This document shows positions 2,555 through 37,200 of a DNA stretch of 54,465 bases, one piece after another; the stretch's first letter is position 1; each line of letters starts with the position of its first letter. The position numbers and the translations under genes were made by a program. Below the pieces are notes generated by a model. The model was not told the origin of the DNA. It did not search any database and was given only the letters and a program-made list of their open reading frames with translations. Origin of the DNA: Candidatus Parvarchaeota archaeon (GTDB taxonomy: Archaea; Nanobdellota; Nanobdellia; JAFCGN01). Location: positions 1 to 54,465 of the forward strand of contig JAFCGN010000003.1 in NCBI GenBank assembly GCA_017608045.1. Direction: 5' to 3'.

Positions 2555-3649
2555 ATGGAAAAACACGAATTCGTTTTAACACTAACTATAATTTTATCCT
2601 TATCTGCAATAGCTCTTTTATTGCATACAAAAACACCTGTTTCTTATTCTGAATATTACATTGTGCCAAGCTCCTACAATAATTATGTGAATACACCTCA
2701 AAATTATTCTTTTGAGTATGTAATTAAAAATCATGAAGGAAAAAAAATGGATTATAACATAAAAGCAGTTTTTAACAATGAAACTTTTTATGAAAAAGAA
2801 ATTGAATTAAATAATAATACCACATTCACTGACACGCCTTTTCTTGAGATAAACTCTCTTCCAAAAAATTCAAGAATTTATTTGAACATAAACAATGGTG
2901 TTGAGAATAAATCATTATGGATAAACTTGTTCAACAAAATTAGTAAAATCAATGATTTTATTATAAAACCAAAAGAAAAGCTTATTATTGATGAAAAAAA
3001 ATTTATTAATTCAGAGATTAGTTTTAATATTGAAATCGCGGACAATGAAGTAAATAATTATTATTACAAAGTCTTAAATGAGGATTATGAAATTTTTAAA
3101 GAAAACTTGATTAAGAACAATCTTACTTCAAAAAATGAACTCACCATTAATTTCAAAAAAACAATTTTAGTTCCTTTAAATTCTTACAATAACTTCTCAG
3201 TTGAACTCTATAATAATGATAACTTGGTTGACAAAGTCTTAATGCCTGAAAATTATTTTGCATTAATTAAATTAGGAAGGATGAACATGCCAGAAACTGT
3301 TTTTAATGGAAGTATGTTAACTAATTTAACAAAGAACACAGTAAGCATAACCCTTATTAATAATAAGAATACTTCAGTTCTTTTTAATATCACTCTTGAA
3401 AGTGTTTCTAAAAAATGTGTTGCAAATGCAATGAGTTCTTGCAGTGCTGATTTCACTTTCTACAAAACAAATGAGACTTCATTTAAAGTTCCTTTAAAAA
3501 TAAGATTAATTGAAAATAAAACAATGAACCCTGTTTTTAACATAACAATGATAGAAGGATGCACTAACTTATCTTCAATTGGTTTAACAATAAAAGAAAG
3601 ATTATATGAATTAGATTTTTCAAAAACGAAAATTATTCTACGCAGTTAA
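2555..3649 (+). CDS. Membrane-anchored exported Asn-rich glycoprotein (DUF1616-like N-terminal domain)
   Basis: N-terminal TM helix, 'YSEYYIV...IKNHEGKKMDYNI' motif and numerous N-x-S/T sequons. Confidence 0.55.
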   Translation: MEKHEFVLTLTIILSLSAIALLLHTKTPVSYSEYYIVPSSYNNYVNTPQNYSFEYVIKNHEGKKMDYNIKAVFNNETFYEKEIELNNNTTFTDTPFLEINSLPKNSRIYLNINNGVENKSLWINLFNKISKINDFIIKPKEKLIIDEKKFINSEISFNIEIADNEVNNYYYKVLNEDYEIFKENLIKNNLTSKNELTINFKKTILVPLNSYNNFSVELYNNDNLVDKVLMPENYFALIKLGRMNMPETVFNGSMLTNLTKNTVSITLINNKNTSVLFNITLESVSKKCVANAMSSCSADFTFYKTNETSFKVPLKIRLIENKTMNPVFNITMIEGCTNLSSIGLTIKERLYELDFSKTKIILRS

Positions 3650-3694: not shown

Positions 3695-5581
3695 ATGTCT
3701 GAAAATTCAAAAAATAAAAAAGAGTTTAACTACTTATTTTTGATTATCCTCTTAATTGCTTTTGCATTACGCTCATTTACTCTTTTTCAGCCATGGTTCT
3801 TGAATGCAAGCAGCGACCCCTTCTTTCATTACGCGTTTGCAAGAGAATACCTTAAAGACCATAACCTAACTTATTCCTTAGATGGTAACAGACCAATCAC
3901 TCAATTGCTTGGAATGTATTGGATTCCAATAATTCTGAGTTTCACTCCAGGAATCTCCTTGCTTTTCGCATTTAAATTAATCCCAATACTACTTGGTGTT
4001 TTAACAGTTTATCTCGCGTACAAATTACCTGAAAATAAGAAAGTAGCGGTTTATTTTTCTTCTTTGCTTGCTGTTTGCCTTCCATTCATTCATAGAACAA
4101 TAAGTGGGAATTACAGGGGGGAAATATATGTTATTGTCTTACTTCTTTACTCCTTGTTAATTTATAAAAAAATGCCAAAAACTTCCTTACTTGTTTCCTT
4201 ACTCTCCATGTTTTTTTGGAATGGCTATGTTTTCGTTTACCTTGTTTTCCTCTTAAACATTTTTATTATTTCAATAATCAAGTTTTTTGAAAAAAAAGAT
4301 TTCTCCCAAGATATTAAACATTTAATTTTATCAATATTCTCTTTTGAAGCACTTTACTTGATTTTAAGAAAAACAAAAATAATTTATTTAAAATCAATAC
4401 TCTTTGAACTAAACCAACCATTTTTTTATTTTGCATTCACACTCCCGCTTTTTTTAGTTTTATTAAAAAATGAAAAACTCTTGAAAAAGAAAAAAATTAT
4501 AATAACAATAAGTGTTAGTGCAGTTGTTCTTGGCTTTTTTATTTTAAAAACAAAATTAGAAGATTTACTCTCAATTATTTATGCAAACCAAGAATTTTAT
4601 AAGATAATAGGCGAGCTTAAAGAAATCACACTCCTAACTTTGTGGCAAAATTATTATTTGATTTTTCCATTAGCGTTAATAGGTCTTTTCTTTTATTTTA
4701 AAAATATTAAAAAAGAAAATTTGTTTTCATGGGTGCTTGCCTCTTTTTTTCTTTTATTCGCAGGAAACAGGTTTTTGTTTTTAACAAGCATACCTTTTTG
4801 CTATCTTGCAGGCTTAACACTAAGCAAAGTAGATATTAAAAAAGAATATGTTTTATTTTTAATTCTAACATTTCAAACAAGTGCTATACTCCCTGACCTG
4901 CTTCTTCATAAAGGACTTGCTAATGAATGGTTGAATGCATTAAATTGGATAAAAGGAAATACTCCTAAAAACTCTACTTTTTTTTGCGATTGGTCTTATG
5001 GAAGCAAAATACAAGCCGTTTCTCAAAGACAAACAATTACAGACAGTGTTCTTGGACAAAATGTAAAAGCAATTAAATCCTTTGCAAATTTTTCTATAAG
5101 CAATACGAACACGCTTAAAAAAATTGATTTTGATTACTTACTCTTAACAATTGATGATTTTTATCAATTCCCAAATTATTACCTTATGTTAAATAAAACT
5201 TTTCCAGGGTTTCAAGTGCTTAAAGAACCAAAAGAAACTGTTTTTAACAATTTTCCTGCAATAGAATATAACGGGGATTCTGGCAAGGTCATAATGATGC
5301 AAACGAAACCCTTGTTAGCAATATTTTTTTATAAAAATGCTGAATACATTAATAAAACAATTATTTATCAAAACGGGAATTATTCAGAATTCGTGTTGCC
5401 AAAAGAAGCGAATCCAATTCCCGGATGTTTTGTCTTACTTGATAATGGTGCTTTATTTTTAAGTCCAGAAGTATGCGATTCAAACTATGTGAAACTATTC
5501 TTCTTTGAAAACTCGCAAAATTGGTTGCCTTACGAACTTGTTTACAAAAATGATAAAATCAAAATTTTTGAGAAATTTTAA
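3695..5581 (+). CDS. STT3/AglB-like GT-C paralogue with degenerate WWDYG motif
   Basis: 'SSDPFFH', 'ISGNYRGE', a TM bundle, and 'ALNWIKGNTPKNSTFFCDWSYGSKIQ', which aligns to AglB 'AFEWIKNNTPQDAVFFHWWDYGYWIQ'. Confidence 0.75.
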   Translation: MSENSKNKKEFNYLFLIILLIAFALRSFTLFQPWFLNASSDPFFHYAFAREYLKDHNLTYSLDGNRPITQLLGMYWIPIILSFTPGISLLFAFKLIPILLGVLTVYLAYKLPENKKVAVYFSSLLAVCLPFIHRTISGNYRGEIYVIVLLLYSLLIYKKMPKTSLLVSLLSMFFWNGYVFVYLVFLLNIFIISIIKFFEKKDFSQDIKHLILSIFSFEALYLILRKTKIIYLKSILFELNQPFFYFAFTLPLFLVLLKNEKLLKKKKIIITISVSAVVLGFFILKTKLEDLLSIIYANQEFYKIIGELKEITLLTLWQNYYLIFPLALIGLFFYFKNIKKENLFSWVLASFFLLFAGNRFLFLTSIPFCYLAGLTLSKVDIKKEYVLFLILTFQTSAILPDLLLHKGLANEWLNALNWIKGNTPKNSTFFCDWSYGSKIQAVSQRQTITDSVLGQNVKAIKSFANFSISNTNTLKKIDFDYLLLTIDDFYQFPNYYLMLNKTFPGFQVLKEPKETVFNNFPAIEYNGDSGKVIMMQTKPLLAIFFYKNAEYINKTIIYQNGNYSEFVLPKEANPIPGCFVLLDNGALFLSPEVCDSNYVKLFFFENSQNWLPYELVYKNDKIKIFEKF

Positions 5582-6499
5582 TTAATTTTTAATTAAATAC
5601 ATCAAATATTTTTCAATTCCTTTTTCAGTATTGTTTTCAATCCTCCATCCAAGCCTCTTGAGTTTTGAATTATCAAGAAGAAAATTAGTTACATCTCCCT
5701 TCCATGTTTCTGTAAACTTGTAAACAGGGTTTACACCTAAAATTTTGCTTATTGTTTTTGCTATTCCTTTCACACTCATTTGTTCATCACTACCAACATT
5801 AAAATAATTGCACCCACTTACTTCTCCTTCAACCATTTTATAAAAAACAAGAATAAATGCTTTTACGCAATCATCAATGTAAACATAAGATTTTGATTGA
5901 TTCCCATCTCCTAAAATCTCAAGTTCTTTTTGGTTTTTTTTCAATTTATTATAAAAATCATAAATAACTCCTTTTTCATTTCCTGGACCATAAATATTTG
6001 CTAAAATAAGCGAGGAAATATTCATGTTATACATGTTAGCATAGGAATTCAAATACAAGTCAACAGAACCTTTGCTTGCACCATAAGGGCTTACAGGAAA
6101 TAGTTTGTCCTTTTCCCTGCAGTACCCGCGATTTCCATAAACAGTGCTTGAACTTGCAAACAATACGTACTTAATCTTATTTTTCCTGCATTCTTCGAGA
6201 ATGTTCAAACTCCCTACTACATTACTTTCAAAATTATCATAAGGATTTTTAACACTTTCAGACACACTTGTTTTTGCTGCTAAATGAAAAACTGCTTTGA
6301 ATTTTTCTTTTTTAAAAACTTCTTCTAAAAATTTTTTATCTAATAAGTCTCCCACAAAGTATTTTACTTTTTTATTCTCCCCTTTTTTTAAATCAATAAC
6401 ACTTACTCTATGATTTTTATCAACTAATGCATTAACTAAATGAGAACCAATAAACCCGCTTCCACCAGTAACTAAGATTTTCATTTTTTTCACTCCCAA
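5582..6499 (-). CDS. NAD-dependent epimerase/dehydratase (UDP-glucose 4-epimerase-like); likely start 6484
   Basis: 'VTGGSGFIG', 'SSSTVYG' and YxxxK 'YGASK'; SD GGAGTGA precedes ATG 6484. Confidence 0.9.
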   Translation of the reverse strand: MGVKKMKILVTGGSGFIGSHLVNALVDKNHRVSVIDLKKGENKKVKYFVGDLLDKKFLEEVFKKEKFKAVFHLAAKTSVSESVKNPYDNFESNVVGSLNILEECRKNKIKYVLFASSSTVYGNRGYCREKDKLFPVSPYGASKGSVDLYLNSYANMYNMNISSLILANIYGPGNEKGVIYDFYNKLKKNQKELEILGDGNQSKSYVYIDDCVKAFILVFYKMVEGEVSGCNYFNVGSDEQMSVKGIAKTISKILGVNPVYKFTETWKGDVTNFLLDNSKLKRLGWRIENNTEKGIEKYLMYLIKN

Positions 6500-7676: not shown

Positions 7677-8516
7677 TCATTCACTTAATCCTTTCCATTC
7701 TTTAATTGCTTTTTCATATCTTTCTTGAGAATCTGTACTAAACCATTGTCCTGCAAAGACATAACCACTAACTTTTCCTTCTTTCACTAATTTTGGAAAA
7801 ACATCCTTCTCAATACTGCTTTTATTTTCTGGAATTCTCTCAAGAATCTCTGGTTCGATTATGTAAACCCCTGCATTAATTAAATTGCTTGGTGCAGTAC
7901 CTTTTTTTGGTTTTTCAACAAAATCAATTATCTTGCTTCCTTTAAGCAAAACAACGCCATAAGAGTAAGGGTCTTCAACAGCTGTGAGTGCTATAGTAAT
8001 AGGCCTATTATTTTTTTTATGGCTTTCATACATTTCATCCAAGTCAAGGTCTATTAAATTATCTCCATTAATCATTATAAAAACATCATTAAACAAATGT
8101 TTTGCATTTCCTAATGCACCACCTGTCCCAAGAGGTTCTTGTTCTTCAACATAAGTTATGTTTACACCAAATCTTTTCCCATCTCCAAAGTATTCTCTTA
8201 TTTTATTACCTAAATATCCTATGCTGATTACAATATCCTTTATGCCATACTTTCTTAATTGTTCGATATGATATTGAAGTATGGGTTTTCCTTTAACTGG
8301 AATCATTGGTTTTGGAACTTCATAAGTGATTGGACGCAGTCTCGTTCCTTTGCCTCCTGCAAGAATAAATGCTTTTTTAAGTCTTTTAATTCCAAGAGCT
8401 TTTTTAAGCAGAAATTCTACTATGTGGCTTCTACTTCTGAATTTGTCGCCATCTATTTTTAAGTCAATCTTTCTAATTATATCTTCATCAATAGTTAATG
8501 AAATCCTCTCTTTCAA
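7677..8516 (-). CDS. Ribbon-helix-helix DNA-binding domain fused to sugar nucleotidyltransferase
   Basis: N-terminus 'MKERISLTIDEDIIRKID...RSRSHIVEFLLKKAL' is an RHH pattern, followed by 'ILAGGKGTRLRPITYEVPKPM'. TTG start with SD AGGTGG. Confidence 0.85.
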   Translation of the reverse strand: MKERISLTIDEDIIRKIDLKIDGDKFRSRSHIVEFLLKKALGIKRLKKAFILAGGKGTRLRPITYEVPKPMIPVKGKPILQYHIEQLRKYGIKDIVISIGYLGNKIREYFGDGKRFGVNITYVEEQEPLGTGGALGNAKHLFNDVFIMINGDNLIDLDLDEMYESHKKNNRPITIALTAVEDPYSYGVVLLKGSKIIDFVEKPKKGTAPSNLINAGVYIIEPEILERIPENKSSIEKDVFPKLVKEGKVSGYVFAGQWFSTDSQERYEKAIKEWKGLSE

Positions 8517-8647: not shown

Positions 8648-10396
8648 ATGAACAGGGAAAAAGAACTTTTGGTTTTTGCGTTTTCTTATATTGTTTTTGT
8701 TTTCCTGAATTTGTTGATAACGCATTACGAGTTTTATTATGATGGTGCAAGAAATGAGAATGTGATGATTGAATTTGCAGAACACAATACATTAACTCTT
8801 TACGCTTTTCCTTACGTGAATAACCCTCCAATATACTTTATTTTAGGCGGGTTTATTATTAAACTTTTTGGAGAGAAACAAATTGTTTTCAAAATCATGG
8901 AATTAACTCTTTACTTTATTGCTGGTTTGCTCGTTTATTTATTTCTTTCAAAAAATAAAATAAAAAAAACACTTTCGTTTTTTGCTTTTTTTTTGTTTCT
9001 TACAGATGTTGCATTAATACACTTGCATAACATTGATTATGTGGGAATAATATGCTTGTTAACAATTCTTGCATTAATAACATATCATGATTTTAACAAA
9101 AAACCAACATTAAAAAATTCGATTATCTTCGGGATAGTTGGGGCTTTTTCATTCTTAACAAAAAGTTCTTTCTTGTTTGTTTTTCTGCCAATTTATTTTC
9201 ATGCGTTTTTCAATAATCTTAATAATCCAAAAAAATTGAAACTAATTTTTTTGTCAGGAATTATTCTTTCTTTAGGACAATTCCTTTGGGAATGTTATTT
9301 ATATGTAAATCATTTACCTTTAATCCCGAATCTTGCAGAATTAAGTGGGAATATTGAATGGAGTGTTAAGAAAACATTTAATCCTTTTAGCGCCTTTCTT
9401 TATTCAATTAAGAAATGGAATGTGTTATATATTCTTGCTTTATTGCTTGTTATCATAAAAAGAGATTACAAAAGTGTTCTTTCATATCTCCTTTTTTTAA
9501 CACCTTTATTAACAAGCATTGTTTTAAAAGTGTATCCTGAAGAATCAATGACTTCTATAATGGTTTTTTCAATAATTTACATATTTGAAAACTTTAATTT
9601 TAAAAAAAATATGAAAGCGTTTTTGTTTATTGTTTTTGTTTTATTCGTGTTCAGAGTATTCGCATTTGAGAAAAGTGATTTTGTTTTTTACAAAAACTCA
9701 ATAAGATATGAATGCCCTTATTTTGTTTTTGCAGAAAACCTGTCAGAACATGATGTTTTGCTTGATACCATTAATTATGCTTATTTAAATCTTTTAAGTC
9801 CAGCATATGTTGATTATAATTATTTGATTGAAAAAGAAATAACACCCTTACTTGCTCTTGACATAAATTATGTTTCTTTTTTTGAAAAAGAAAAACATCT
9901 TATAGAAGACCCTATTTCTGTTTCCTTTGGCATTATTTATCCTGAAAATTATTTTAAACAATTAAAAAAATTTAATTGTTTTTGCAACAAAACTAATAAA
10001 ACAATTTATGTTTATTCTTTTAACTCAACTTCTTTTTATTCAGATTTAGGGATTAAATACTATTTTGATGTTAAAATAAATAATTTCAAAAAAAACATAA
10101 ATTCTCAATCTTTGATTCGTGTGACAGGAAACAATTTTACAGCAACTTATTTTACAAACAAGATTGGAGAAAAAAGAATTTTTGTAAATAAACCTGGCGT
10201 TTATCATTTAACCATAATAAAAACAGGGTATAAAGTAGGGGAATACAATGTTTTTGTCCCTATCAGTGGATATGCTAAAATAATAGTTTCTAATGAACTA
10301 AAAAATCCTGAGAATATTACACTTTCTAACATTATTGAAATAAATTTAACAAAAGGAAATGCTTTTTTTCATAATGTTTCTGAATTAAGATATTAA
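8648..10396 (+). CDS. GT-C glycosyltransferase (ArnT/PMT-like)
   Basis: External-loop Asp 'YYDGA', 'NNPPIYF', 'LTKSS', about 11 TM helices and a C-terminal extracellular domain. Confidence 0.7.
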   Translation: MNREKELLVFAFSYIVFVFLNLLITHYEFYYDGARNENVMIEFAEHNTLTLYAFPYVNNPPIYFILGGFIIKLFGEKQIVFKIMELTLYFIAGLLVYLFLSKNKIKKTLSFFAFFLFLTDVALIHLHNIDYVGIICLLTILALITYHDFNKKPTLKNSIIFGIVGAFSFLTKSSFLFVFLPIYFHAFFNNLNNPKKLKLIFLSGIILSLGQFLWECYLYVNHLPLIPNLAELSGNIEWSVKKTFNPFSAFLYSIKKWNVLYILALLLVIIKRDYKSVLSYLLFLTPLLTSIVLKVYPEESMTSIMVFSIIYIFENFNFKKNMKAFLFIVFVLFVFRVFAFEKSDFVFYKNSIRYECPYFVFAENLSEHDVLLDTINYAYLNLLSPAYVDYNYLIEKEITPLLALDINYVSFFEKEKHLIEDPISVSFGIIYPENYFKQLKKFNCFCNKTNKTIYVYSFNSTSFYSDLGIKYYFDVKINNFKKNINSQSLIRVTGNNFTATYFTNKIGEKRIFVNKPGVYHLTIIKTGYKVGEYNVFVPISGYAKIIVSNELKNPENITLSNIIEINLTKGNAFFHNVSELRY

Positions 10397-10446
10397 AACA
10401 ACTTTTATAAAAAAACTTTAAAACTAATTGTTTTTATCTTAATACT

Positions 10447-11523
10447 ATGAAGTCAAAAGTCGCGGTCATTAAAACAACGCCAAGAACTGTTATTGATGAT
10501 TATCAAAAACTTCTTAAATTAAGTGATTTCAAAAAAGAGATTAATAAAGATTATTTAACTCTTCTTAAACTCAATTTAAGTTGGACTTTATTCTACCCTG
10601 CTTGTTCAAGTCCTCCATGGCAAGTGGATGGTGTTGCTAAATTTTTAAGAGACAATAATTATGAGGATGTTGTTGCTGTTGAAAATAAAACTGTTGTGAC
10701 AAAACCAATAAAAGGAGCAATTAATAACAAATGGTTAAGCGTTCTTAACAAATATAAAATAAAATTTCAACCTTTAACTAATGTTGAATGGACTGTTTAT
10801 AAACCAAAAGCAGAGATGCTTGCATTAGACAGAATCTTTGATGACTATAAAATACCAAAAATGTTTATTGGAACAAATGTTATTCATTTTCCTACGATTA
10901 AAACACATGGACACACGACAATGACAGGTGCTATGAAAAACGCTTTTGGTGGATTAATTACAGAAAGAAGGCATCATTGTCATAAGTACATACACGAAGT
11001 TCTTGTTGACTTGCTTCAAATTCAGAAAGAAATTCATAAAGGGGTTTTTGCAGTCATGGATGGTTCAGTGGCGGGTAATGGTGCAGGCCCAAGAACAATG
11101 ATTCCAGTAATAACAAATCTTTTGCTTGCAAGCAATGATCAAGTAGCTATTGACGCAGTATCCGCGCGAATAATGGGTTATGATCCAATGAGTATAAAAT
11201 TTATTAAACTCTCGCATGATTTAGGTCTTGGAAACGGGGATCTTAAACAAATTGAAATAGTTGGAGATTTTGATTCTTATGAAAAACTTCCTAACCACAA
11301 ATTCCATACTAAAAAATCTTTAGTTATTTTTTCTGACCAATTAACAAGAAAAGGTGCTTTAAGTTTTATAGAACCATTACTTTACCATGGTCCCTTGTTT
11401 AATTTATGCATTGCAGGGAGTGCAATATACCATGATGCATTCTGGTATAATACTATTGGAAGAAAAAGAATAAAAGAATTTATGAAAACAAAATGGGGGC
11501 AAAAGTTTAAGTCTTATGAGTAA
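10447..11523 (+). CDS. DUF362 domain protein
   Basis: 'LLKLNLSW', 'PTIKTHGHTTMTGAMKNAFG' and 'SNDQVAIDAV' motifs. Confidence 0.8.
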   Translation: MKSKVAVIKTTPRTVIDDYQKLLKLSDFKKEINKDYLTLLKLNLSWTLFYPACSSPPWQVDGVAKFLRDNNYEDVVAVENKTVVTKPIKGAINNKWLSVLNKYKIKFQPLTNVEWTVYKPKAEMLALDRIFDDYKIPKMFIGTNVIHFPTIKTHGHTTMTGAMKNAFGGLITERRHHCHKYIHEVLVDLLQIQKEIHKGVFAVMDGSVAGNGAGPRTMIPVITNLLLASNDQVAIDAVSARIMGYDPMSIKFIKLSHDLGLGNGDLKQIEIVGDFDSYEKLPNHKFHTKKSLVIFSDQLTRKGALSFIEPLLYHGPLFNLCIAGSAIYHDAFWYNTIGRKRIKEFMKTKWGQKFKSYE

Positions 11524-11534
11524 GGGCGTGATTA

Positions 11535-13130
11535 ATGAAGAAGAACACGTTTTACTTTATTTCATTATTATTTCTCTTATTCATTACAAGATTCCTTAAT
11601 CTTAATGAAGCACCTCCAGGCATTAATGATGATGAAGTGATTAATTTACAACCAGTAACAAAATTATTAAACAATCATGAATTCTTCTGGTTTATTGAAG
11701 ACGAGAGAGAACCTTTATTCTATTATTTATTATCATTTTACTTTTTGTTCTTCCCGAGAACAATGTTTTTTGTGAGATTATTCCCAGCTTTCATTGGGTC
11801 TCTTACAGTGCTTCTTACTTATTATTTATTAAGACGACTCTATGATACAAGAACAGGTTATTATTCTGCTGTGATTCTTGCAATAAGTAATTGGCATTAT
11901 CATTTCAGCAGGCTTCTTTACAGAGCAATACTAACACCAATCACTATGTTATTAGTATTATATTTAACAAAGAATTTTTATGAAAAGAAAAAAAACACAT
12001 GGTTCCTTGCTATCATAACCTCTTTCTTCGTATTTTATACTTATGGTCCTGCAAAATTCTTAGTCTTAGTCCCTATTACTTATTATTTATTCACGCAAGA
12101 AATTAATAAGCATTCATTAGTAAGAACAATCAAGCTTTACGCAATAATAATACTTATTTCATTACCAATAATCATTCCTAACATCTTCTTTGATAAGGGA
12201 ATGGATAGAACGCACAAAGTCGTTTACATCTTTAAGAATTACTTAAGCGTGAATCAAAAAATCATGATGTTTTTTAACCTCATGCTTGATTATGTTAAAA
12301 TGTTATTCTTTTTTGGTTGCGTTTCATGGCAATACAATTACCCCTTACATCCTTTATTATCCTTGTTTGAATTCATTTTCTTCCCACTTGGCTTATTCTT
12401 TTCAACGAAGAACAAGAAAGAATTCTTCTTACTCTGCCTTCTGCTTTTCTTCGGTGCTTTCACTGAATTCATTAGTTTTGACAGCCCTAATGCTGTTCGT
12501 TCCTTACAAATAACACCAATAATTGCTTTAATATCAGCAAAGGGCTTCACTTCATTAATTAATCTTAATTTTTTTAAAAAAAATTTTTCCAAAAAACAAC
12601 GCAGTAATTATCAACACTCATTTTTTATTTTATTAATGATTCTCAGTCTTACCCTTAATTTAAAGAATTATTATGCATGGAGTGATGAGCATGGAACAGG
12701 AGTCACTTTTCACTCGAATTACATTAATAATATTGAAGAATTTTTTGAGAACCCATTATTGAATAACATTCATTATGTGATTAAATTACCTTACAATCAA
12801 TCAAGAACGCTTATGACAATGTACCTCAACTTTTTTGATCCAAAGAATGAAACGAAGTACATGATAGTTAAGAATTATGATGAGATTAAACAAGACACTC
12901 CTTTCTTCGTTCTTCTTGAATTAAGTAATGGATTAAAAGTAACTTGTTATGATGCTTTACTTATTAAGAACTCTAAGGAATTCTGGTTAGGTTGGTTCAC
13001 TATTGTTAAGAAGTACTTTAAGAATCAAGAGGAGTATAATATTTTTTATGAAGAACTGAATAACTCCTGTTATAATGACACTGGAATTAAAAGTATTAAA
13101 TACTTTAAGGATTACATAATGATAAAATAA
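11535..13130 (+). CDS. GT-C glycosyltransferase (ArnT/GT39-like)
   Basis: 'PPGINDDE', 'EPLFYY', 'VRLFPA...YHFSR' and multiple TM helices. Confidence 0.8.
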   Translation: MKKNTFYFISLLFLLFITRFLNLNEAPPGINDDEVINLQPVTKLLNNHEFFWFIEDEREPLFYYLLSFYFLFFPRTMFFVRLFPAFIGSLTVLLTYYLLRRLYDTRTGYYSAVILAISNWHYHFSRLLYRAILTPITMLLVLYLTKNFYEKKKNTWFLAIITSFFVFYTYGPAKFLVLVPITYYLFTQEINKHSLVRTIKLYAIIILISLPIIIPNIFFDKGMDRTHKVVYIFKNYLSVNQKIMMFFNLMLDYVKMLFFFGCVSWQYNYPLHPLLSLFEFIFFPLGLFFSTKNKKEFFLLCLLLFFGAFTEFISFDSPNAVRSLQITPIIALISAKGFTSLINLNFFKKNFSKKQRSNYQHSFFILLMILSLTLNLKNYYAWSDEHGTGVTFHSNYINNIEEFFENPLLNNIHYVIKLPYNQSRTLMTMYLNFFDPKNETKYMIVKNYDEIKQDTPFFVLLELSNGLKVTCYDALLIKNSKEFWLGWFTIVKKYFKNQEEYNIFYEELNNSCYNDTGIKSIKYFKDYIMIK

Positions 13131-13173
13131 AACAGTTACACTATTAACTGAGAATAGTATTAAACGCAGAACA

Positions 13174-14049
13174 TTAAGCTAAGTAAAAAGATATGAAGCA
13201 TATTAACAACCAAAACAAAACCCCGCAAACAATGTATTTGTCAAACAGGATTAATTCCGTATTTCTTCCTGCTTTATGATTTGACAGAACTAAGTGCAAA
13301 TATCTTTGTAAAATAAAAACAACAATAGGGATTGTAAGCATCATTAAATTATTGCTTGTGCTTGCTAAAAACGTGTAAAAAGAATATGTTGAAAGAAGCA
13401 TTGCTGTTATAATTGTAATATAATTTTTGAGAAGGTCTTCAGTGTAAAAAGCATAAACTTTTTTATGTTTTTCAGGATTTTTTCCTAAAATTTTTTTATC
13501 ACTTAATCTTTTGCTCAATCCTAAAAATAATGCAAGCAAATACACCATAACTAAAAGCCACGGACTACTGCCAACATTAATCGCGTTCATCCCGCTTACA
13601 GTTCTTATAATAAAGTTTAATGCAATGAATTGCAAATCAATTAAAGGAACATTTTTAGCGAACAAAGAGTATGTTAAAGTGCTTAAAAACAATAATGTTG
13701 GGAATACAAAAAACAAATTATTTATGAAAAACGAAAAATAAATTGAAAGACTAAAAAAAATAATAACAAGGAGTTTAGCAAATTTTTTACTAATTTTCTT
13801 GCTTGCTAAAACCCTATGTTTTTTTTCAGGATGCTTTTTGTCTTTTTCATAATCTATTAAGTCATTAATTATGTAATTTGTTGAACTCATGAAACAAAGT
13901 GCAATAAAACCAATAAAACTAAATGAAAAACTCTTAAAATTGAAAAGATTTTTACTAAAAAAAATCGGAAGAAAAATAACTAAATTTTTATACCATTGCC
14001 TAATGCGCATTAAGTTTATTATGTTCTTTAATTTTTGAATTATTCTCAT
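13174..14049 (-). CDS. UbiA-family polyprenyl-phosphate phosphoribosyltransferase (DPPR synthase-like)
   Basis: 'LMRIRQWYKNLVIFLP', 'YIINDLIDYEKDKKHPEKKHR' and 'FLGLSKR' are typical of the Rv3806c-type subfamily. Confidence 0.85.
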   Translation of the reverse strand: MRIIQKLKNIINLMRIRQWYKNLVIFLPIFFSKNLFNFKSFSFSFIGFIALCFMSSTNYIINDLIDYEKDKKHPEKKHRVLASKKISKKFAKLLVIIFFSLSIYFSFFINNLFFVFPTLLFLSTLTYSLFAKNVPLIDLQFIALNFIIRTVSGMNAINVGSSPWLLVMVYLLALFLGLSKRLSDKKILGKNPEKHKKVYAFYTEDLLKNYITIITAMLLSTYSFYTFLASTSNNLMMLTIPIVVFILQRYLHLVLSNHKAGRNTELILFDKYIVCGVLFWLLICFISFYLA

Positions 14050-14134: not shown

Positions 14135-14989
14135 ATGAAGGCAATAATTCCTGCTGCAGGCAAGGGGACGAGATTACTTCCAAATACACTTGGTGCTCCA
14201 AAAGAATTAATAACTTTTCTTGGCAAGCCTTCAATAGAGTGGGCAATTGATTACTTAAAAGAAAACAACATAAACGATATAACAATAATAACAGGCTATA
14301 AAAAGTCAGCTCTTTTTGATTATTTAGGTACTGGCAGTTTTTTTAATGTTAAAATTGATTATGCATTACAACATAATCCAAAAGGGTTGGGGCATGCAAT
14401 TCTTTGTGCTAAAAACAATATTTTAGAAGATGATTTCATTGTTTATTTAGGGGACACTATTATTGTTCCGAAAAACAATCCTTTTGGGAAATCGCATGAC
14501 TTAGAGGAACTTGTAAAATTGCATTTAGAAAAAAACGCGTTTGCAACAATGCTGCTTGAAGAAGTTTTAAATCCAGAAATATATGGTGTTGTGCGTTTTG
14601 ATAAAAAAAGCAAACTTATAACAGATATTTATGAAAAACCAAAAGATGAAAAAGTTAAGAAAAGGTTTAGATTAAAGAACGGTAAATACTTAGCAATTTC
14701 AGGAATTTATGTTTTTAACAAAGAAATTTTTGATTATCTTAAAAAATTGAAACCAGGATTAAATAATGAAATTCAATTAACAGACGCAATATTAAATGCA
14801 TTGAAAGATGAAAATCTTGTTTATGGAAGGATTTTAAATGGAATGAGAGTGGATATAGGAAACTTTAACTATTTAAAACATGAACAAGAAGTATATGGCA
14901 TGCTTAAAAATGAACAATTAGAAGCATGGATTAATGAGAGGGAAGCTCTTGGAAAAAAAATAAAGAGGGAAGTTTATAATGAAAAATAA
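14135..14989 (+). CDS. UTP/dTTP-glucose-1-phosphate nucleotidyltransferase (GalU/AglF/RmlA-like)
   Basis: 'AAGKGTRLLP...PKEL', 'PKGLGHAI', 'YEKP' and 'EIQLTDAI'. Confidence 0.9.
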   Translation: MKAIIPAAGKGTRLLPNTLGAPKELITFLGKPSIEWAIDYLKENNINDITIITGYKKSALFDYLGTGSFFNVKIDYALQHNPKGLGHAILCAKNNILEDDFIVYLGDTIIVPKNNPFGKSHDLEELVKLHLEKNAFATMLLEEVLNPEIYGVVRFDKKSKLITDIYEKPKDEKVKKRFRLKNGKYLAISGIYVFNKEIFDYLKKLKPGLNNEIQLTDAILNALKDENLVYGRILNGMRVDIGNFNYLKHEQEVYGMLKNEQLEAWINEREALGKKIKREVYNEK

Positions 14990-15959
14990 AATTGAGAACA
15001 AAACACTGCTTATAACAGGAGGGGCAGGATTTCTCGGAAGCCACTTGTGCGAATTTTATCTTAATAATAACAGAGTAATATGCGTTGATTCTTTAGCAAG
15101 CGGGAGAATAGAAAATATTAATCATTTATTAAAAAACAAGAATTTTGTTTTTATGAACCATGATGTAATTGAATCAATGCCAAAAATACTTGAAGACGTG
15201 GATTACGTGCTTCATTTCGCAAGCAGAGCAGCACCTGAAGAATATCAAAAACATGCGATGCATACTTTAAAAACAAATTCAATTGGAACAATGAATATGC
15301 TTGAATTTGCATGGCAAAAAAAAGCAATTTTTTTATTTGCATCCACAAGCGAGATTTACGGGCAACCAAGCATGGTTCCAACACCTGAAACTTATTATGG
15401 TTATGCGAATACAATTGGTCCAAGGTCTTGCTATGATGAAAGCAAGAGATTTGGTGAAACAATTTGTAAAACTTATGCAGAGTCTTATAATGGTTTGGAT
15501 GTTAGGATAATCAGGATTTTCAATACTTTTGGTCCAAGAATACGGCATGATGTTCATTATGGAAGAGCATTACCAAGATTTATTTATCAAGCATTAACAG
15601 GAAAAGACATAACAATTTATGGAGATGGAAGTCAAACAAGGAGTTTTATGTATGTTTCTGATTTAGTGAGTGCAGTTAACATAATTTTAAGACAAAAAGG
15701 ACCAAAAAAGGTTTCACATAACGGTCATGTGTATAATGTGGGGAATCCTCAAGAAGTTAGTATAAAAAAACTTGCAGAAAAAATTATTGAATACACTAAT
15801 TCAAAATCAAAAATAACGTATTCCTCTCTTCCTAAAGATGACCCTTTAAGAAGGGTTCCGGACATTACTAAAATGAAATCCTTAGGATGGGAGCCAAAAG
15901 TTCATTGGGAAGATGGCTTAAAATTAACAATTAAATGGTTTAAAGAAAAAATGGTATAA
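14979..15959 (+). CDS. uxs: UDP-glucuronate decarboxylase (UDP-xylose synthase)
   Basis: 'TGGAGFLGSHL', 'STSEIYG', 'GPRSCYDESKR' and 'DDPLRRVPDI'. Confidence 0.9.
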   Translation: MKNKIENKTLLITGGAGFLGSHLCEFYLNNNRVICVDSLASGRIENINHLLKNKNFVFMNHDVIESMPKILEDVDYVLHFASRAAPEEYQKHAMHTLKTNSIGTMNMLEFAWQKKAIFLFASTSEIYGQPSMVPTPETYYGYANTIGPRSCYDESKRFGETICKTYAESYNGLDVRIIRIFNTFGPRIRHDVHYGRALPRFIYQALTGKDITIYGDGSQTRSFMYVSDLVSAVNIILRQKGPKKVSHNGHVYNVGNPQEVSIKKLAEKIIEYTNSKSKITYSSLPKDDPLRRVPDITKMKSLGWEPKVHWEDGLKLTIKWFKEKMV

Positions 15960-17125: not shown

Positions 17126-18598
17126 TTAACCTCTGAGTGTTAGTTTGCTTTTTAATGTTTTTAAAAATTTCTTATCCTCTTTATCAAAGAAGTTTAACTT
17201 ATACAATGCGCCAGAATATAACATTACACCTATTACGCCTCCAACACTTAATAATAAAAATCCATTAAGATAATTTTTTAATAAAAGAACAGGAAGAATT
17301 GAAATTCCTGCTATTAATGATTTGAATAAATATTTGTATGGGAAAAACTTTTCATTTAATTTTAAATACAAATAAAATCCTTCAAAAAAACAAGTTATTA
17401 AATAAACTAAACTTGCGCCAACAGCACCATATCCAATTTTGCTTAAAGAAGGTATGAATATTAAAGACGCAATCACGCTTATTATTGCAAGAAGTGATCT
17501 CATTTTTGAAAAAAGTTTTGCTTTTCCAAATCCAAGAGCAATATTATTCCATAAAGTTAATACTCCATAAATCATGCTCGCTATTGAACAAACAATCAAA
17601 GAAGGAGTTGAAGGAAGATAAGCATCTTTATAGAAAAAAAGAATTAACTCCTTTCTAAAAATAATTGCTAAAAACCCTAATGGAATTGTTACAATAAAAT
17701 TGTATTTAAAGAATCTTGGCAATGTTTTTTTTAATTCTTCTTTATTCGAACTTGTTATAAATGGTTGTAATACTGTTCCTAATGTTATGCTTAAAAGAAA
17801 AATCATGCTTGTAATGCTTATGCTTATTCCAAAAAAAGCTACTTGTGAGGAATCTGCAAATTTTCCGAGAATAAGAGGAGTGAGTTTGTTGTAGAAAACC
17901 ATCATTATTAAACCAGAATAAATAAAACCAGAGTATTTGAAAAATGTTTTTTTATTAATTTTTTTAAACCCATTTTCTTTTGGATAAACAAACCACATTA
18001 AAACTATGCTAAAAATTAAGGATAAAACAAAACCTGAACTAAAACCAACATAAATGAAATGACTTCCATAAAGAATAAGGAATAAAACAGCAAAGATTCT
18101 TGGAAGTGTTTGAGAAAGGTCAAGAAGAACTGCTTTTCCAACTCGTTTAAATGCAATAAGAGCTGAACTAAAAAATGTTAGGAGTGAATAAGAGAAATTG
18201 CTTATGCTAAAAATAATTAATGGTGCTTTTAATTCCGGCATATTATAAAACTTGCTTATTGTGCCAGCGAATAAAATTAATAAAAAACTCGTGATTGATG
18301 TTATAAACAATCTTATTCTAAAAGCATAGTTTAAATAAGATTTCGTTTCTTGAGGCGATTTTGAACTTGGTATAAAAAAAGTAATTGTTTGGTTTAATCC
18401 AAAATCATTAATTAATTGTAATGTCATTATTATTCCTAATGCTAATGAAAATATTCCAAAAGAATTTGGACCCATCCACCTGGCAAGCAAAGCCATTAAA
18501 ACAAAATTTGTAACTAAGTATAATATTTTTCCAATAAAATAAATCCCTGTTCCCTTTATGACCTTGCTTACCTGCATATGGAAGAAATACAACAACAA
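17126..18598 (-). CDS. Oligosaccharide flippase (Wzx/AglR-like); likely start 18577
   Basis: About 14 TM helices, 'ARWMGPNSFGIFS' and 'GYGAVGAS'. Confidence 0.85.
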   Translation of the reverse strand: MLLYFFHMQVSKVIKGTGIYFIGKILYLVTNFVLMALLARWMGPNSFGIFSLALGIIMTLQLINDFGLNQTITFFIPSSKSPQETKSYLNYAFRIRLFITSITSFLLILFAGTISKFYNMPELKAPLIIFSISNFSYSLLTFFSSALIAFKRVGKAVLLDLSQTLPRIFAVLFLILYGSHFIYVGFSSGFVLSLIFSIVLMWFVYPKENGFKKINKKTFFKYSGFIYSGLIMMVFYNKLTPLILGKFADSSQVAFFGISISITSMIFLLSITLGTVLQPFITSSNKEELKKTLPRFFKYNFIVTIPLGFLAIIFRKELILFFYKDAYLPSTPSLIVCSIASMIYGVLTLWNNIALGFGKAKLFSKMRSLLAIISVIASLIFIPSLSKIGYGAVGASLVYLITCFFEGFYLYLKLNEKFFPYKYLFKSLIAGISILPVLLLKNYLNGFLLLSVGGVIGVMLYSGALYKLNFFDKEDKKFLKTLKSKLTLRG

Positions 18599-23876: not shown

Positions 23877-25406
23877 ATGACAAAAGAAGAAACAACACTT
23901 TTAGAGGATAAAGTTAAGACTTTTTTTAACAATGTTGTTAAAAGATTGACTTTTTTTGACTATGTTTTTATTTTTTTACTCATAATAATTGGTGTTTGGA
24001 AAATTTCTTTAATAAAACATTGTTTGTGGATAGATGAAGCAAGAGAGTTATTTATAACACGAAATTTTCTGAGAACAGGGCATTTCACTTTTTTTGGAGA
24101 AGAATACATGCAACATCCTTTCGGATTCTACATTTCATTAGCGCTTGCTTCTTTTTTTACAATGGGCTTGAAAGATGTAACAGGAGAAATTGTTGTTTTC
24201 ATTTTTGGACTAATTGGAATTATAATGACTTACTTGTTAGGCAAGGAATTGCGAAATAGGACAACAGGAATTATTGCATCTTTATTCGTGGCTTTTCAAC
24301 CAACATATGCTTTTATTTCTGGAAGAATTCTTAATGACGTGCCAATGATTTCAATGCTCATAACTGCTTTTTACTTTTTTTTAAGAGGAGAAAAAAGAAA
24401 TGAAATAAGAAGCACTTATTTAGCAGGGTTTTTTTCAGCATTAGCAATGCTTATGAAGATAAGTTCAATAGCAGTAATGCCAAGCATTGTTATATATCTT
24501 ATTTGGAAAAAAAAGTTAAAGTGGCTGAAAGAAAAAAAATATTGGATTATGTTTTTAGTTTTTATTTTAACATTCAGCACGTGGATTATAAGAAATATTG
24601 TTGTTGGAAAAGAATTTTTTCCATTCAGTCTATATTTTGGAAGGTTAGAACCTGGAGAACACACGCTTGATGTTGAACCTCCAACATATTATATAAAAAA
24701 TTTTATTCCAATGTTCAGTATTATATTAACAATTCTGTTCTTACTGAGCTTGTTTTTAGGTTTAATTAATTCTTATAAAAAACAAGAGCTTCTAATCATT
24801 TGGTTTTTTCTATTCTTTATTTTAATAACCTTGCAAACTGTTAAAGTGCCGAGGTACTTGCTTCCTGTTCTTCCAGCTATTGCTTTAATAAGCGCGTATA
24901 ACCTTGATTTAATTACAAATATTTTTAAAAAAAATCTTCTCATAAAATATGTTTTAATTATTTTTATACTAACATTGTATGTTGTGCCTAATTTTAAGTA
25001 TTCTACCACTCTTATTAAAGAAAGAGCAAGTGGTTTTTGCGGTTTAAAAGAAATGGGAGAATTATTGAATCTTATTACAAATCCAAACGAGACAATAATG
25101 TGCGCAAGCAATACGCAAATGCATTGGTATTCTGATAGAAATGTTGTAAGTTTCCCTGAAAATGAAACCAATTTTGATTCATTTATTGAGGAAAACAATG
25201 TGTCCTACATTGTAGTAGATATTTGGGAAAGAACAGCACCGAAATATGTTTTTAATAATGGTAAAATTTGGATGCCTTATTTTTTGAACAATTCAAAATA
25301 TCCTTTTACAGGATGGGCGTATCCCATCTCAAACAATACTTACGCAATTTTCATATATGGTGTTGCTAATAAAACATCATTTAATTTTTTGAATGAAACA
25401 CTATAA
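23877..25406 (+). CDS. GT-C glycosyltransferase (ArnT/PMT-like)
   Basis: 'LWIDEA', 'QHPFG', 'ILND' and 'PRYLLP'. Confidence 0.85.
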   Translation: MTKEETTLLEDKVKTFFNNVVKRLTFFDYVFIFLLIIIGVWKISLIKHCLWIDEARELFITRNFLRTGHFTFFGEEYMQHPFGFYISLALASFFTMGLKDVTGEIVVFIFGLIGIIMTYLLGKELRNRTTGIIASLFVAFQPTYAFISGRILNDVPMISMLITAFYFFLRGEKRNEIRSTYLAGFFSALAMLMKISSIAVMPSIVIYLIWKKKLKWLKEKKYWIMFLVFILTFSTWIIRNIVVGKEFFPFSLYFGRLEPGEHTLDVEPPTYYIKNFIPMFSIILTILFLLSLFLGLINSYKKQELLIIWFFLFFILITLQTVKVPRYLLPVLPAIALISAYNLDLITNIFKKNLLIKYVLIIFILTLYVVPNFKYSTTLIKERASGFCGLKEMGELLNLITNPNETIMCASNTQMHWYSDRNVVSFPENETNFDSFIEENNVSYIVVDIWERTAPKYVFNNGKIWMPYFLNNSKYPFTGWAYPISNNTYAIFIYGVANKTSFNFLNETL

Positions 25407-25452
25407 CTTATTGTTCAATAAAATTAAATATTAATTATGTCAATTATTCAAT

Positions 25453-26268
25453 ATGGTTTTAGAATCTTTGATTAACCCTTACCAAGCAAAGAAAAGTCCA
25501 ACAAGTTTGTTTTTGCTCGGATTATTGTATTCAACATTTGCAGTTTTGCTTTCGCTTACAATTTTTCCTGAAGACCCTTCACTAACAATCGTTTTTTTGA
25601 CTGTTATGGGAGCACTCCCTCTTTTTGTGAACACAATAAAATCTGAACAAAGAAAAGATTATAGAAGAGTTCCTTTAATCAAAGAGCATACAGACATTTT
25701 TCTTGTATTCCTCTTTCTTTTTCTTGGAATTCTTTTTGGTTATATATTCTGGGATTCCATTCTCCCAAACCAATTATTCATGGTTCAAGAAAAAACAATT
25801 GAATCAATTAATAATGAATTTTCTTCACAAATTGCATTTACAGGCAGTGCTGTTAATTTGAAAGCGTTTTCAATTATTTTGTTAAACAATATTAAGGTTC
25901 TTGCATTTTGTTTTCTTTTTTCTTTCCTTTATGGAAGCGGAGCATTATATATTCTTACGTGGAATGCAAGCGTGATTGCAACAGCAATAAGTCAATTAAT
26001 ACAGAGTGAGATGATTGCTCTTGCACCATCATTAATTAATTATTTTAAAGCAATTAATGTTGGCTTAGGCTCTTATTTAATTCATGGCATACCAGAAATA
26101 CTTTCTTATTTTATTGCAGCAGTTGCAGGCGGTATTATTAGTGCAGCAGTAATAAGACATGATTACAAGAGCAAAGAATTTAAAAATACATTAATTGATA
26201 GTATTGATTTAATAGCCATGTCATTAATTATATTATTAGTGGCAGGATTTATTGAAATCATAATTTAA
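25453..26268 (+). CDS. SpoIIM/DUF95-family membrane protein
   Basis: 'IILLNNIKV', 'WNASVI' and 'HGIPEI'. Confidence 0.8.
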   Translation: MVLESLINPYQAKKSPTSLFLLGLLYSTFAVLLSLTIFPEDPSLTIVFLTVMGALPLFVNTIKSEQRKDYRRVPLIKEHTDIFLVFLFLFLGILFGYIFWDSILPNQLFMVQEKTIESINNEFSSQIAFTGSAVNLKAFSIILLNNIKVLAFCFLFSFLYGSGALYILTWNASVIATAISQLIQSEMIALAPSLINYFKAINVGLGSYLIHGIPEILSYFIAAVAGGIISAAVIRHDYKSKEFKNTLIDSIDLIAMSLIILLVAGFIEIII

Positions 26269-26279
26269 GGTGTGTTTTT

Positions 26280-36563: not shown

Positions 36564-37200
36564 ACTTATTTTTTAAAAGTACTTTTAAAATTCTTAATCC
36601 ATCCTTCCACGCATTTAATTTTGATTCACCTATTCTTTCAGTGTATTTGATTGGCACTTCTTTTACTTTAAGACCTTTCTTCATGCATTGTATATGAAGT
36701 TCTGTTTCAATTTCAAAACCTGTTGATTTTAATTCAAGATTATTAAAATCTTTTGTTTTAAAAACTCTTAAACCAGTAAGCAAGTCATTTGTTTTTCCAT
36801 AAAGCACGCTTGCTATAAATGAAAAGAATTTATTACCCAGTAAATGAAGAAAACTCATGCCTTTTATCTTTGTTCTTGAACCAATAACAACATCTGCTTC
36901 ATTTTTTTCTAAAATATCCAACATTTCATCAAATTTATCCGTAGGATAAGTTCCATCGCCGTCAATAAATGCAAGATATTTTGTTTTCACATGCTTTCCT
37001 GCTTCCCTCATAGCATTACCTTTTCCTTTGCTTTTTTGCAAAATCACTTTTGCTCCTGCTTTTTCAGCAATTTCAGCAGTTTTATCTTCTGATTTATCTA
37101 TTACAAGAACATCAAATTTTTTTGGAATGCTCTTAATCACTTTTTTTATTCCTTTTCCTTCATTTCTTGTTGGGATTATTACTGTTAATTTTTTCTTCAT
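36556..37200 (-). CDS. GT2, dolichol-phosphate glycosyltransferase (DPM1-like)
   Basis: 'GKGNA', 'DGDGTYP', 'VIGSR', 'GFEIETE' and 'GESKL'. Confidence 0.88.
   Translation of the reverse strand: MKKKLTVIIPTRNEGKGIKKVIKSIPKKFDVLVIDKSEDKTAEIAEKAGAKVILQKSKGKGNAMREAGKHVKTKYLAFIDGDGTYPTDKFDEMLDILEKNEADVVIGSRTKIKGMSFLHLLGNKFFSFIASVLYGKTNDLLTGLRVFKTKDFNNLELKSTGFEIETELHIQCMKKGLKVKEVPIKYTERIGESKLNAWKDGLRILKVLLKNKFK

Follow-up and report, generated by a model that had tools for sequence, protein, structure and literature searches.

The four-gene locus

Within a 54,465-nt stretch of DNA from Candidatus Parvarchaeota archaeon (contig JAFCGN010000003.1; hereafter the window), four adjacent genes encode two candidate GT-C glycosyltransferases, a soluble protein of the DUF362 family and a predicted phosphoribosyltransferase of the UbiA superfamily, and we consider here the lipid-linked sugar pathway in which they may act. 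GT-C1 (8648–10396, 582 aa), the DUF362 subfamily protein (10447–11523, 358 aa) and GT-C2 (11535–13130, 531 aa) are encoded on the forward strand, and the UbiA gene (13174–14049, 291 aa) lies on the reverse strand, with gaps of only 50 bp between GT-C1 and DUF362, 11 bp between DUF362 and GT-C2, and 43 bp between the convergent GT-C2 and UbiA genes. The open reading frames (ORFs) fall exactly where a preliminary description of this DNA had placed them, and two other metagenomes contain near-identical contigs on which genes called independently give the same four proteins, in the same order and with the same lengths. The nearest genome is a DPANN ('Parvarchaeota') metagenome-assembled genome with identical gene order. 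The window has a GC content of 28%, forms one long archaeal glycosylation island and also codes for AglB/STT3, Orc1/Cdc6 and FEN1.

Both proteins that flank DUF362 are candidate GT-C enzymes, judging by Pfam matches and hydropathy, and each is a candidate extracytoplasmic pentofuranosyltransferase. GT-C1 matches Pfam PMT_2 marginally (27.5 bits, cut-off 26.1) and scores 19.7 bits with a hidden Markov model (HMM) of GT-Cs clustered from neighbourhoods of related loci; crude hydropathy places about eight transmembrane (TM) helices within its N-terminal 340 aa and a soluble domain of about 240 aa at its C terminus. GT-C2 matches PMT_2 with 51.3 bits and PMT with 31.4 bits and, by the same crude measure, has at least six TM helices and then a soluble C terminus. 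The label 'ArnT-like' that the preliminary description had given to the two proteins holds at the level of PMT_2 and goes no further, as neither has a sequence match in the PDB; an AlphaFold2 model of GT-C2 (pLDDT 45) was too poor for a fold search. GT-C2 is evolving fast, with only 5 homologues at E < 1e-5 among 5.8 billion proteins. Set beside DUF362, which is about 60% identical across phyla, this is an extreme contrast of rates inside one operon.

A predicted PRPP-dependent phosphoribosyltransferase

The protein encoded at 13174–14049 matches Pfam UbiA with 79.1 bits, and its best NCBIfam models are three decaprenyl-phosphate phosphoribosyltransferase models (193, 140 and 98 bits). It falls under all three equivalog cut-offs (193 against 234 bits for NF008977 and 140 against 207 for NF008978) and is predicted to work like the Rv3806c-type family while forming a distant branch of it. 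Its sole real match in the PDB is 8j8j, the structure of Rv3806c (E 7.7e-18). That structure provides a list of the residues that bind Mg and phosphoribosyl pyrophosphate (PRPP), including phosphoribose ligands that are not common to ordinary UbiA prenyltransferases (PMC10994848).

We transferred these ligand residues to the window protein through a HMMER alignment, and 10 of the 12 PRPP/Mg contact residues of Mycobacterium tuberculosis Rv3806c are identical in it: R22, K28, Y70, N73, D77, K87, R90, Y138, K143 and K208 correspond to R15, K21, Y59, N62, D66, K76, R79, Y127, K132 and K197. Among 24 DUF362-linked orthologues the first nine of these window positions show no or almost no variation, and K197 is variable across the family. 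The NDxxDxxxD motif of TM2 and cytoplasmic loop 1 (N73, D74, D77 and D81 in Rv3806c; N62, D63, D66 and D70 here) is invariant in the same 24 proteins. The cluster of lysine and arginine residues around the pyrophosphate (R22, K87, R90, K143, Y138 and K208) is present in full as R15, K76, R79, K132, Y127 and K197, and the counterparts of the 5′-phosphate ligands K28 and Y70 are conserved as K21 and Y59. The two exchanges affect Y157, a 5′-phosphate ligand that is F146 in the window and also phenylalanine in some mycobacteria, and Q135, a ligand of ribose O3 that is T124 in the window and threonine, serine or asparagine across the family. The motifs of the mycobacterial decaprenylphosphoryl-5-phosphoribose (DPPR) synthase, on which the preliminary description had relied, are thus borne out by retained PRPP-binding residues, and the prediction that UbiA transfers a phosphoribosyl group from PRPP to a lipid phosphate is well supported at the level of sequence.

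That the protein is instead an ordinary prenyltransferase acting on a lipid, quinone or other substrate, its place beside DUF362 in a glycosylation island being incidental, is very improbable. Such a reading could draw on the score below the equivalog cut-off (193 against 234 bits), on the replacement of Gln135, the ribose-O3 ligand, by threonine, and on a big bacterial clade of similar UbiA proteins that are encoded with mevalonate-pathway genes and without glycosylation genes. Yet the phosphoribose- and pyrophosphate-binding residues that separate Rv3806c from prenyltransferases are kept, every top family match is a DPPR synthase, and it recurs in operons together with phosphatase, flippase and GT-C genes.

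DUF362 and UbiA are neighbours across phyla

A scan of species-representative genomes with an alignment of the DUF362 protein returned at least 586 relatives, of which we analysed the best 80 loci together with three others (n = 83). Partner families were defined by unbiased clustering of the neighbouring proteins, followed by Pfam and NCBIfam scans of the clusters. Much the most frequent neighbour of DUF362 is a UbiA protein resembling DPPR synthase (DPPRS-like): 38 of the 83 loci have one within 300 bp and 60 have one within 3 kb, and of the 19 UbiA-negative loci about eight have short flanks. The loci span more than ten phyla, including DPANN archaea, methanogens, Thermoplasmatales, Altiarchaeota, Firmicutes and others. 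A lack of linkage between DUF362 and UbiA or GT-C genes elsewhere had been named in advance as grounds for dropping the idea of a common module, and the outcome was the opposite: the linkage is strong and phylogenetically wide. As the DUF362–UbiA neighbourhood recurs in 60 of 83 species-level genomes, the arrangement of the four window genes is far beyond chance. Gene order and orientation of the DUF362–UbiA pair vary widely, which points to selection on proximity rather than to common descent of one arrangement.

The other recurrent neighbours fill the functional slots of the bacterial three-component pentofuranose systems and of the mycobacterial arabinose-donor pathway (PMC11127046): a PHP-domain phosphoesterase in 31 loci and a PAP2 phosphatase in 4 that are without PHP (35 of 83 in total), a flippase-like protein in 30 loci (LPG_synthase_TM/TIGR00374, here LPGs, in 20, SMR in 4 and MOP in 7) and GT-C proteins of several sub-families in 30. 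Methanogen operons read UbiA–(GT-C)–PHP–LPGs–DUF362 or DUF362–UbiA–PHP–LPGs, a Peptococcaceae operon reads UbiA–DUF362–SMR–GT-C, and DPANN loci combine DUF362 with UbiA, at times with PHP or PAP2 and at times with MOP. Phosphatase and flippase types are exchanged between lineages for non-orthologous ones, GT-Cs are swapped as well, and DUF362 and UbiA stay. Because PHP and DUF362 coexist in one methanogen operon (UbiA–PHP–LPGs–DUF362), DUF362 is not simply the phosphatase. One apparent DUF362–UbiA fusion ORF (L057:8838–10574) proved to be an artefact in which a masked run of N bridges two genes.

In the reverse direction, we scanned metagenomes with UbiA and found about 23 of 80 loci with glycosylation genes, 11 of which include DUF362. 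At least nine UbiA loci with PAP2 or PHP and with GT-C or GT2 lack DUF362, and since these do without it, DUF362 is optional for the basic pathway, as an auxiliary sugar modifier would be; the basis for this is the set of about 23 informative loci.

Another 43 of the 80 loci (L091–L164) belong to an unrelated bacterial context, in which a TlyA-like methyltransferase gene diverges from UbiA and the latter is followed by genes for a GHMP kinase, an isopentenyl-phosphate-kinase-like protein, HD and GreA, and genes for glycosylation are lacking. The setting suggests that this clade of DPPRS-like UbiA proteins has another, isoprenoid-linked role in housekeeping.

Seven DPANN loci (L006, L013, L014, L035, L044, L050 and L060) hold a second, divergent DUF362 paralogue (Npun_F2552-like, 82 bits) paired with a flavin adenine dinucleotide (FAD) protein of the amine-oxidase/phytoene-desaturase type (PRK07233-like, 230 bits), and the pair adjoins UbiA and the primary DUF362. 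It may form a two-protein redox module that acts on the same lipid-linked sugar. This pair is absent from the window, in whose 54 kb no FAD oxidoreductase was found.

DUF362 is highly conserved and related to LarA

The DUF362 protein matches Pfam PF04015 with 91.6 bits as its sole detected domain and, lacking any TM segment by hydropathy, is predicted to be soluble. Its matches comprise more than 8000 clusters at 90% identity, and the best 120 of these are 61–98% identical to it. Orthologues across 80 genomes are 54–83% identical and come from DPANN, Altiarchaeota, Methanosarcinales, Methanomicrobiales, Methanobacteriales, Methanocellales, Thermoplasmatales and bacteria, the bacterial carriers including Peptococcaceae, Desulfocucumis, Acetothermia, Aminicenantes and Actinomycetota.

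Several lines of evidence connect this protein to LarA, as the preliminary description had suggested. First, DUF362 and DUF2088/LarA are grouped in one Pfam clan, CL0471 (PMC11770544). Second, the Pfam DUF362 model matches genuine LarA proteins (25.8 bits, threshold 24) over LarA residues 82–245. Third, a confident AlphaFold2 model of the window protein (pLDDT 89, pTM 0.90) has as its top Foldseek matches the LarA-like nickel-pincer nucleotide (NPN) enzymes 9q3j (E 2e-4), 4nar and 9q3k, a distant similarity with E values of 2e-4 to 2e-3 and TM-scores of 0.27–0.42, the highest being 0.42 for 4nar. 4nar is probably the D-gluconate 2-epimerase of Thermotoga maritima, an enzyme that belongs to the LarA superfamily. 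Genuine LarAs carry PF09861 (Lar_N) and PF21113 (LarA_C), an architecture that DUF362, with PF04015 alone, lacks.

For comparison at the level of residues, we used a Lactiplantibacillus plantarum LarA sequence that is 100% identical to 5huq_A and for which the numbering R75, H108, H174, K184 and H200 holds. An hhalign comparison of broad DUF362 and LarA alignments is weak (P = 0.057, 127 columns) and agrees in topology with the Pfam mapping. It places His154 of DUF362 on the catalytic His174 of LarA and Lys164 on Lys184, which tethers the cofactor, with a spacing of 10 residues in both proteins. Nothing useful came from hhalign of a narrow DUF362 alignment against the single LarA sequence, a search of the PDB gave only noise with the single DUF362 sequence and no match with a profile, and a regular-expression search of all fetched loci found no LarA-like protein.

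His154 and Lys164 are invariant in the UbiA-linked subfamily and, together with His179, are common to the second DUF362 paralogue. They form part of a conserved core rich in histidine and aspartate (THGH, RHHxH, HE, D188, D205, D231 and D236) with the invariant motif PTxK-THGH...K; Asp205, Asp231 and Asp236 are universal among 45 sequences of the wider DUF362 family. In several relatives an intein is placed exactly between K152 and T153, within PTxK|THGH. Inteins home into catalytic cores, and their position here therefore points to this motif as the functional core of DUF362.

The inteins occur in P0242, P0243, P0250, P0252, P0253, P0254 and probably P0249, with N-terminal junctions '...PTxK|C(V/C)HP(E/D)TE' and C-terminal junctions '...HN|THGH'. 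Some are mini-inteins of about 175 aa and others measure 410–530 aa. DUF362 appears to be an unlisted intein host protein.

A proposed pentofuranose pathway and the role of DUF362

We propose that the module encodes a PRPP-dependent pentofuranose pathway, which the sequences make highly probable, and that DUF362 is a dedicated enzyme of it, which is only a little less so. UbiA is predicted, with good support from its sequence, to take 5-phosphoribose from PRPP and link it to a polyprenyl or dolichyl phosphate at the cytoplasmic face. A phosphatase, of PHP or PAP2 type in related genomes, would take off the 5-phosphate. The soluble DUF362 protein would remodel the lipid-linked ribose, or ribose 5-phosphate, in the cytoplasm before export, and its likeliest chemistry would be a redox-neutral epimerisation at C2 or C3, from the ribo to the arabino or xylo configuration, by transient hydride abstraction, the way LarA treats 2-hydroxy acids and sugar acids; it would in this way stand in for DprE1/DprE2 or for the bacterial systems' epimerase of the short-chain dehydrogenase/reductase (SDR) type. 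A flippase, for which the candidate in the window is a MOP protein 3 kb away and in relatives an LPG_synthase_TM or SMR protein, would export the donor, and the two flanking GT-Cs, going by their family, would put the pentofuranose onto surface glycans outside the membrane.

Four considerations make epimerisation the likeliest chemistry for DUF362. First, racemases and epimerases that shuttle a hydride, among them sugar-acid 2-epimerases, are its sole relatives by structure and clan. Second, it holds the position that an SDR or DprE1/DprE2 occupies in the characterised systems. Third, it is optional. Fourth, it coexists with dedicated phosphatases. Taken whole, the reading that the region is the core of PRPP-dependent lipid-linked pentofuranose glycosylation, with DUF362 as probable epimerase of lipid-linked ribose, is on balance slightly favoured. 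Its epimerase part, considered by itself, is plausible and tentative. That DUF362 supplies the epimerisation and that arabinose is the product, as the preliminary description had it, is an inference; of the five key residues of LarA, two have plausible counterparts in the weak alignment. More specifically, the UbiA-linked DUF362 could epimerise lipid-linked sugars as a single protein, with a cofactor (NPN-like or new) that is tethered to a lysine and accepts a hydride, and so turn lipid-phosphate ribofuranose into an arabino- or xylofuranose donor in place of DprE1/DprE2, an idea that we regard as rather doubtful.

A number of observations weigh against an epimerase or against parts of the scheme. 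The weakness of the LarA alignment limits any mapping of residues, and in that alignment Arg75, which contacts the NPN phosphate, falls on L48 of DUF362 and has no counterpart, His108, the second catalytic histidine, falls on a stretch free of histidine, and His200, the Ni ligand, lies in a LarA-specific insertion; the neighbouring His176, His177 and His179 of DUF362 could act as stand-ins. HMMER profiles of the two DUF362 paralogues together and of 45 diverse DUF362 proteins found nothing when compared with LarA. Across the wider family, His154 (31 of 45) and Lys164 (23 of 45) are not universal. No recurrent LarB-, LarC- or LarE-like cluster lies within 6 kb of DUF362 in the neighbourhoods of the 83 loci. 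The level of conservation, about 60% identity from DPANN to Firmicutes as against 27–49% for UbiA, is odd for an accessory epimerase. Finally, family and locus-cluster HMM scans detected no PHP, PAP2 or HAD phosphatase candidate in the 54-kb window, and the bacterial UbiA–DUF362–SMR–GT-C operons hold no other phosphatase, which leaves room for a hydrolase role.

On such a role, DUF362 would be a metal-dependent hydrolase, namely the 5′-phosphatase or a pyrophosphatase that pulls the UbiA reaction, or would carry out an oxidation or dehydration, and the sugar would be ribofuranose or a novel derivative. The conserved core rich in histidine and aspartate would suit a hydrolase, as would the bacterial operons and the window in which no other phosphatase is seen, and the missing equivalents of LarA Arg75, His108 and His200 point the same way. 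We nevertheless consider it unlikely. A PHP or PAP2 protein coexists with DUF362 in 35 of 83 loci, even in single operons, which ranks a 5′-phosphatase role lower; DPPR phosphatases belong to the PAP2 and HAD families, with Rv3807c presumably of the former; and by fold and clan DUF362 is akin to racemases and epimerases and not to hydrolases. The pairing of DUF362 paralogues with an FAD oxidoreductase in some relatives likewise speaks for redox chemistry.

Comparison with characterised systems

The closest parallel to the proposed pathway is provided by the three-component extracytoplasmic pentofuranose systems of Citrobacter youngae O1 and O2, encoded by ORF15–ORF14–ORF12 with or without ORF13 (Kelly et al., PNAS 2024, PMC11127046). 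In both, a UbiA-type phosphoribosyltransferase uses PRPP, the 5-phosphate is taken off, a flippase and a GT-C follow, and the identity of the pentose is set by an optional auxiliary enzyme that the basic pathway can do without. As in those systems, a polyprenyl-phosphate 5-phosphoribosyltransferase (PPPRS), a flippase and a GT-C occur together in the window: UbiA abuts GT-C2, the module has two GT-Cs and the MOP protein is 3 kb off. The components differ in kind. The phosphatase is PHP or PAP2 here and a fused HAD domain there; the flippase is LPG_synthase_TM, SMR or MOP here and MATE there; the GT-Cs are of the PMT_2 type here and GT136 there; and the auxiliary slot holds DUF362, of the LarA clan, in place of an SDR or DprE1/DprE2. 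The hosts differ too: here they are Gram-positive anaerobes and archaea, the latter including DPANN and methanogens.

No SDR- or DprE-type auxiliary epimerase is specifically linked to the module in the window. A GalE-like SDR is present 2 kb upstream of the module (5582–6499, −, 305 aa; Pfam Epimerase 188 bits; NCBIfam galE 163 bits, under cut-off) and counts against an epimerase role for DUF362, which holds the conserved position. This protein is either a rival candidate for epimerising the lipid-linked pentose, in the manner of ORF13 from Citrobacter, or a common epimerase of nucleotide sugars. If it, or a protein like it, carried out any epimerisation, as ORF13 does in C. youngae O2, DUF362 would be left as an accessory, regulatory or scaffold partner of UbiA. 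In the bacterial prototype, the SDR alone turns undecaprenyl-phosphate ribofuranose (undP-Ribf) into the xylofuranose (undP-Xylf) (PMC11127046), and GalE-like SDRs occur in 17 of the 83 DUF362 loci. Compared with about 63 loci for UbiA, that linkage is much looser, and the SDRs are mostly distant, lying among nucleotide-sugar genes beside nucleotidyltransferases, as is typical of UDP-sugar epimerases. The extreme conservation of DUF362, its invariant polar motif and its intein homing site further argue for a catalytic protein, and we judge an accessory role for it to be quite improbable.

In the mycobacterial pathway to decaprenylphosphoryl-arabinose (DPA), the Rv3806c DPPR synthase is followed by the phosphatase Rv3807c, the 2′-epimerase DprE1/DprE2, Rv3789 and the Emb and Aft GT-Cs. 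The first enzyme is homologous to the window UbiA, with the ligands of PRPP, Mg and the 5′-phosphate kept, and GT-Cs are the end users in both. Some relatives of the window locus have PAP2 next to UbiA, in the manner of Rv3807c, and some bacterial relatives have an SMR-type flippase. DprE1 and DprE2, whose absence from the window the preliminary description had already noted, were not detected: of the ORFs of 100 aa or more that were scanned, a set that leaves aside two of 124 and 133 aa, none is DprE1-like (FAD_binding_4) or DprE2-like. The place of the two-enzyme epimerase is taken by one soluble protein, DUF362, and the carrier is presumably dolichyl or another polyprenyl phosphate.

The LarA superfamily (DUF2088) comprises racemases and epimerases that use the nickel-pincer nucleotide, and shares clan and fold with DUF362. 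LarA takes a hydride off a secondary alcohol carbon and returns it to the other face, the chemistry that epimerisation of ribose to arabinose or xylose needs. DUF362 differs in belonging to PF04015, in lacking LarA_C, in having a helical C-terminal extension of about 70 aa and in showing no clear equivalents of the three LarA residues named above, and it would act on a lipid-linked sugar in place of a 2-hydroxy acid.

The literature that we searched contains no prior account linking DUF362, PF04015 or COG2006 to UbiA/PPPRS, nor of the pathway in archaea. The type of pathway is known; new are its archaeal distribution, the PHP phosphatase, the LPG_synthase_TM flippase and, above all, the conserved partner from the LarA clan. 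The view that this is a specifically archaeal route has to be given up, as the same core is found in Peptococcaceae and other bacteria. If our proposal is correct, PRPP-dependent lipid-linked pentofuranose synthesis, known from mycobacteria and a small number of Gram-negative O-antigens, would reach many lineages of archaea, and a very conserved, uncharacterised DUF362 subfamily would gain a role. DUF362 would be a non-homologous substitute for DprE1/DprE2, the two epimerase proteins at which anti-tuberculosis drugs are aimed, and the reach of the LarA-type fold would extend from 2-hydroxy acids to membrane-bound sugar donors. Should DUF362 be a single-protein epimerase, D-arabinofuranose or xylofuranose would be a widespread constituent of surface glycans among DPANN archaea and methanogens and in some anaerobic bacteria. 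The idea is open to direct testing in cultured carriers, among them Methanocella conradii, Methanospirillum stamsii, Methanobacterium oryzae, Methanolobus bombayensis and Desulfocucumis palustris.

Other genes in the window

The flippase candidate is a MOP/Wzx-type protein (17126–18598, −, 490 aa) encoded 3 kb from UbiA, which matches Pfam Polysacc_synt and Polysacc_synt_3 and reaches 392 bits with an HMM built from the MOP cluster adjoining UbiA in the DPANN loci L011, L028 and L034. It is a candidate for the flippase of the lipid-linked pentose and could just as well belong to the island's oligosaccharide pathway. Further away, an LPG_synthase_TM/TIGR00374 flippase-like protein (37252–38223, +, 323 aa; 101.7 bits with the locus-cluster HMM and 85 bits with TIGR00374) belongs to the family seen in the methanogen UbiA–PHP–LPGs–DUF362 operons, but lies 23 kb from the module. 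Its gene is divergent from that of a GT2 protein resembling dolichyl-phosphate-sugar synthases (36556–37200, −, 214 aa), and the pair (36556–38223) looks like a synthase-plus-flippase unit for a lipid-linked hexose.

Next to UbiA lie genes for a sugar-1-phosphate nucleotidyltransferase (14135–14989, +), recognised in Pfam and NCBIfam scans, and a UDP-xylose synthase (14979–15959, +), whose best PDB match is human UXS1 (282 bits, the next PDB family reaching 147). The latter is genuine and starts 930 bp from the UbiA start, as first described; taken in the preliminary description as a pointer to a pentose-rich glycocalyx, it belongs to a separate nucleotide-sugar route and reveals little of the module. 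These two genes (14135–15959) are not required for the PRPP route, and the UDP-xylose synthase and the GalE-like SDR both sit among nucleotidyltransferases, like ordinary nucleotide-sugar genes. Another sugar-1-phosphate nucleotidyltransferase (7677–8516, −) has an N-terminal extension of about 45 aa that weakly resembles a ribbon-helix-helix (CopG) domain (18.3 bits, cut-off 20.5) and may, by its sequence, be an enzyme–regulator fusion.

Three further proteins of the glycosylation island belong to no family. One of 628 aa (3695–5581, +) has at least eight TM helices and a faint STT3-like signal with no Pfam family, and may be a further divergent GT-C or oligosaccharyltransferase-like enzyme; the other two (2555–3649, +, and 326–1384, −) measure 352–364 aa. 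The canonical N-glycosylation block (23877–30172) encodes a third GT-C (PMT_2/GT22, Agl23-like), a SpoIIM-like membrane protein, a 957-aa AglB/STT3 and a GT4-family (PF00953) phosphosugar transferase, and with this block present the island encodes an AglB pathway as well as the proposed PRPP/GT-C pathway.

Two regions at the far end of the window (39988–45216 and 48423–52837) encode proteins of 994 and 727 aa with low-specificity Pfam matches of the coiled-coil type, followed by small ORFs of no assigned function, together with a secretion or pilus ATPase of the T2SSE family (762 aa) and a 709-aa partner without a family. They may specify a surface-filament or attachment apparatus of the DPANN cell.

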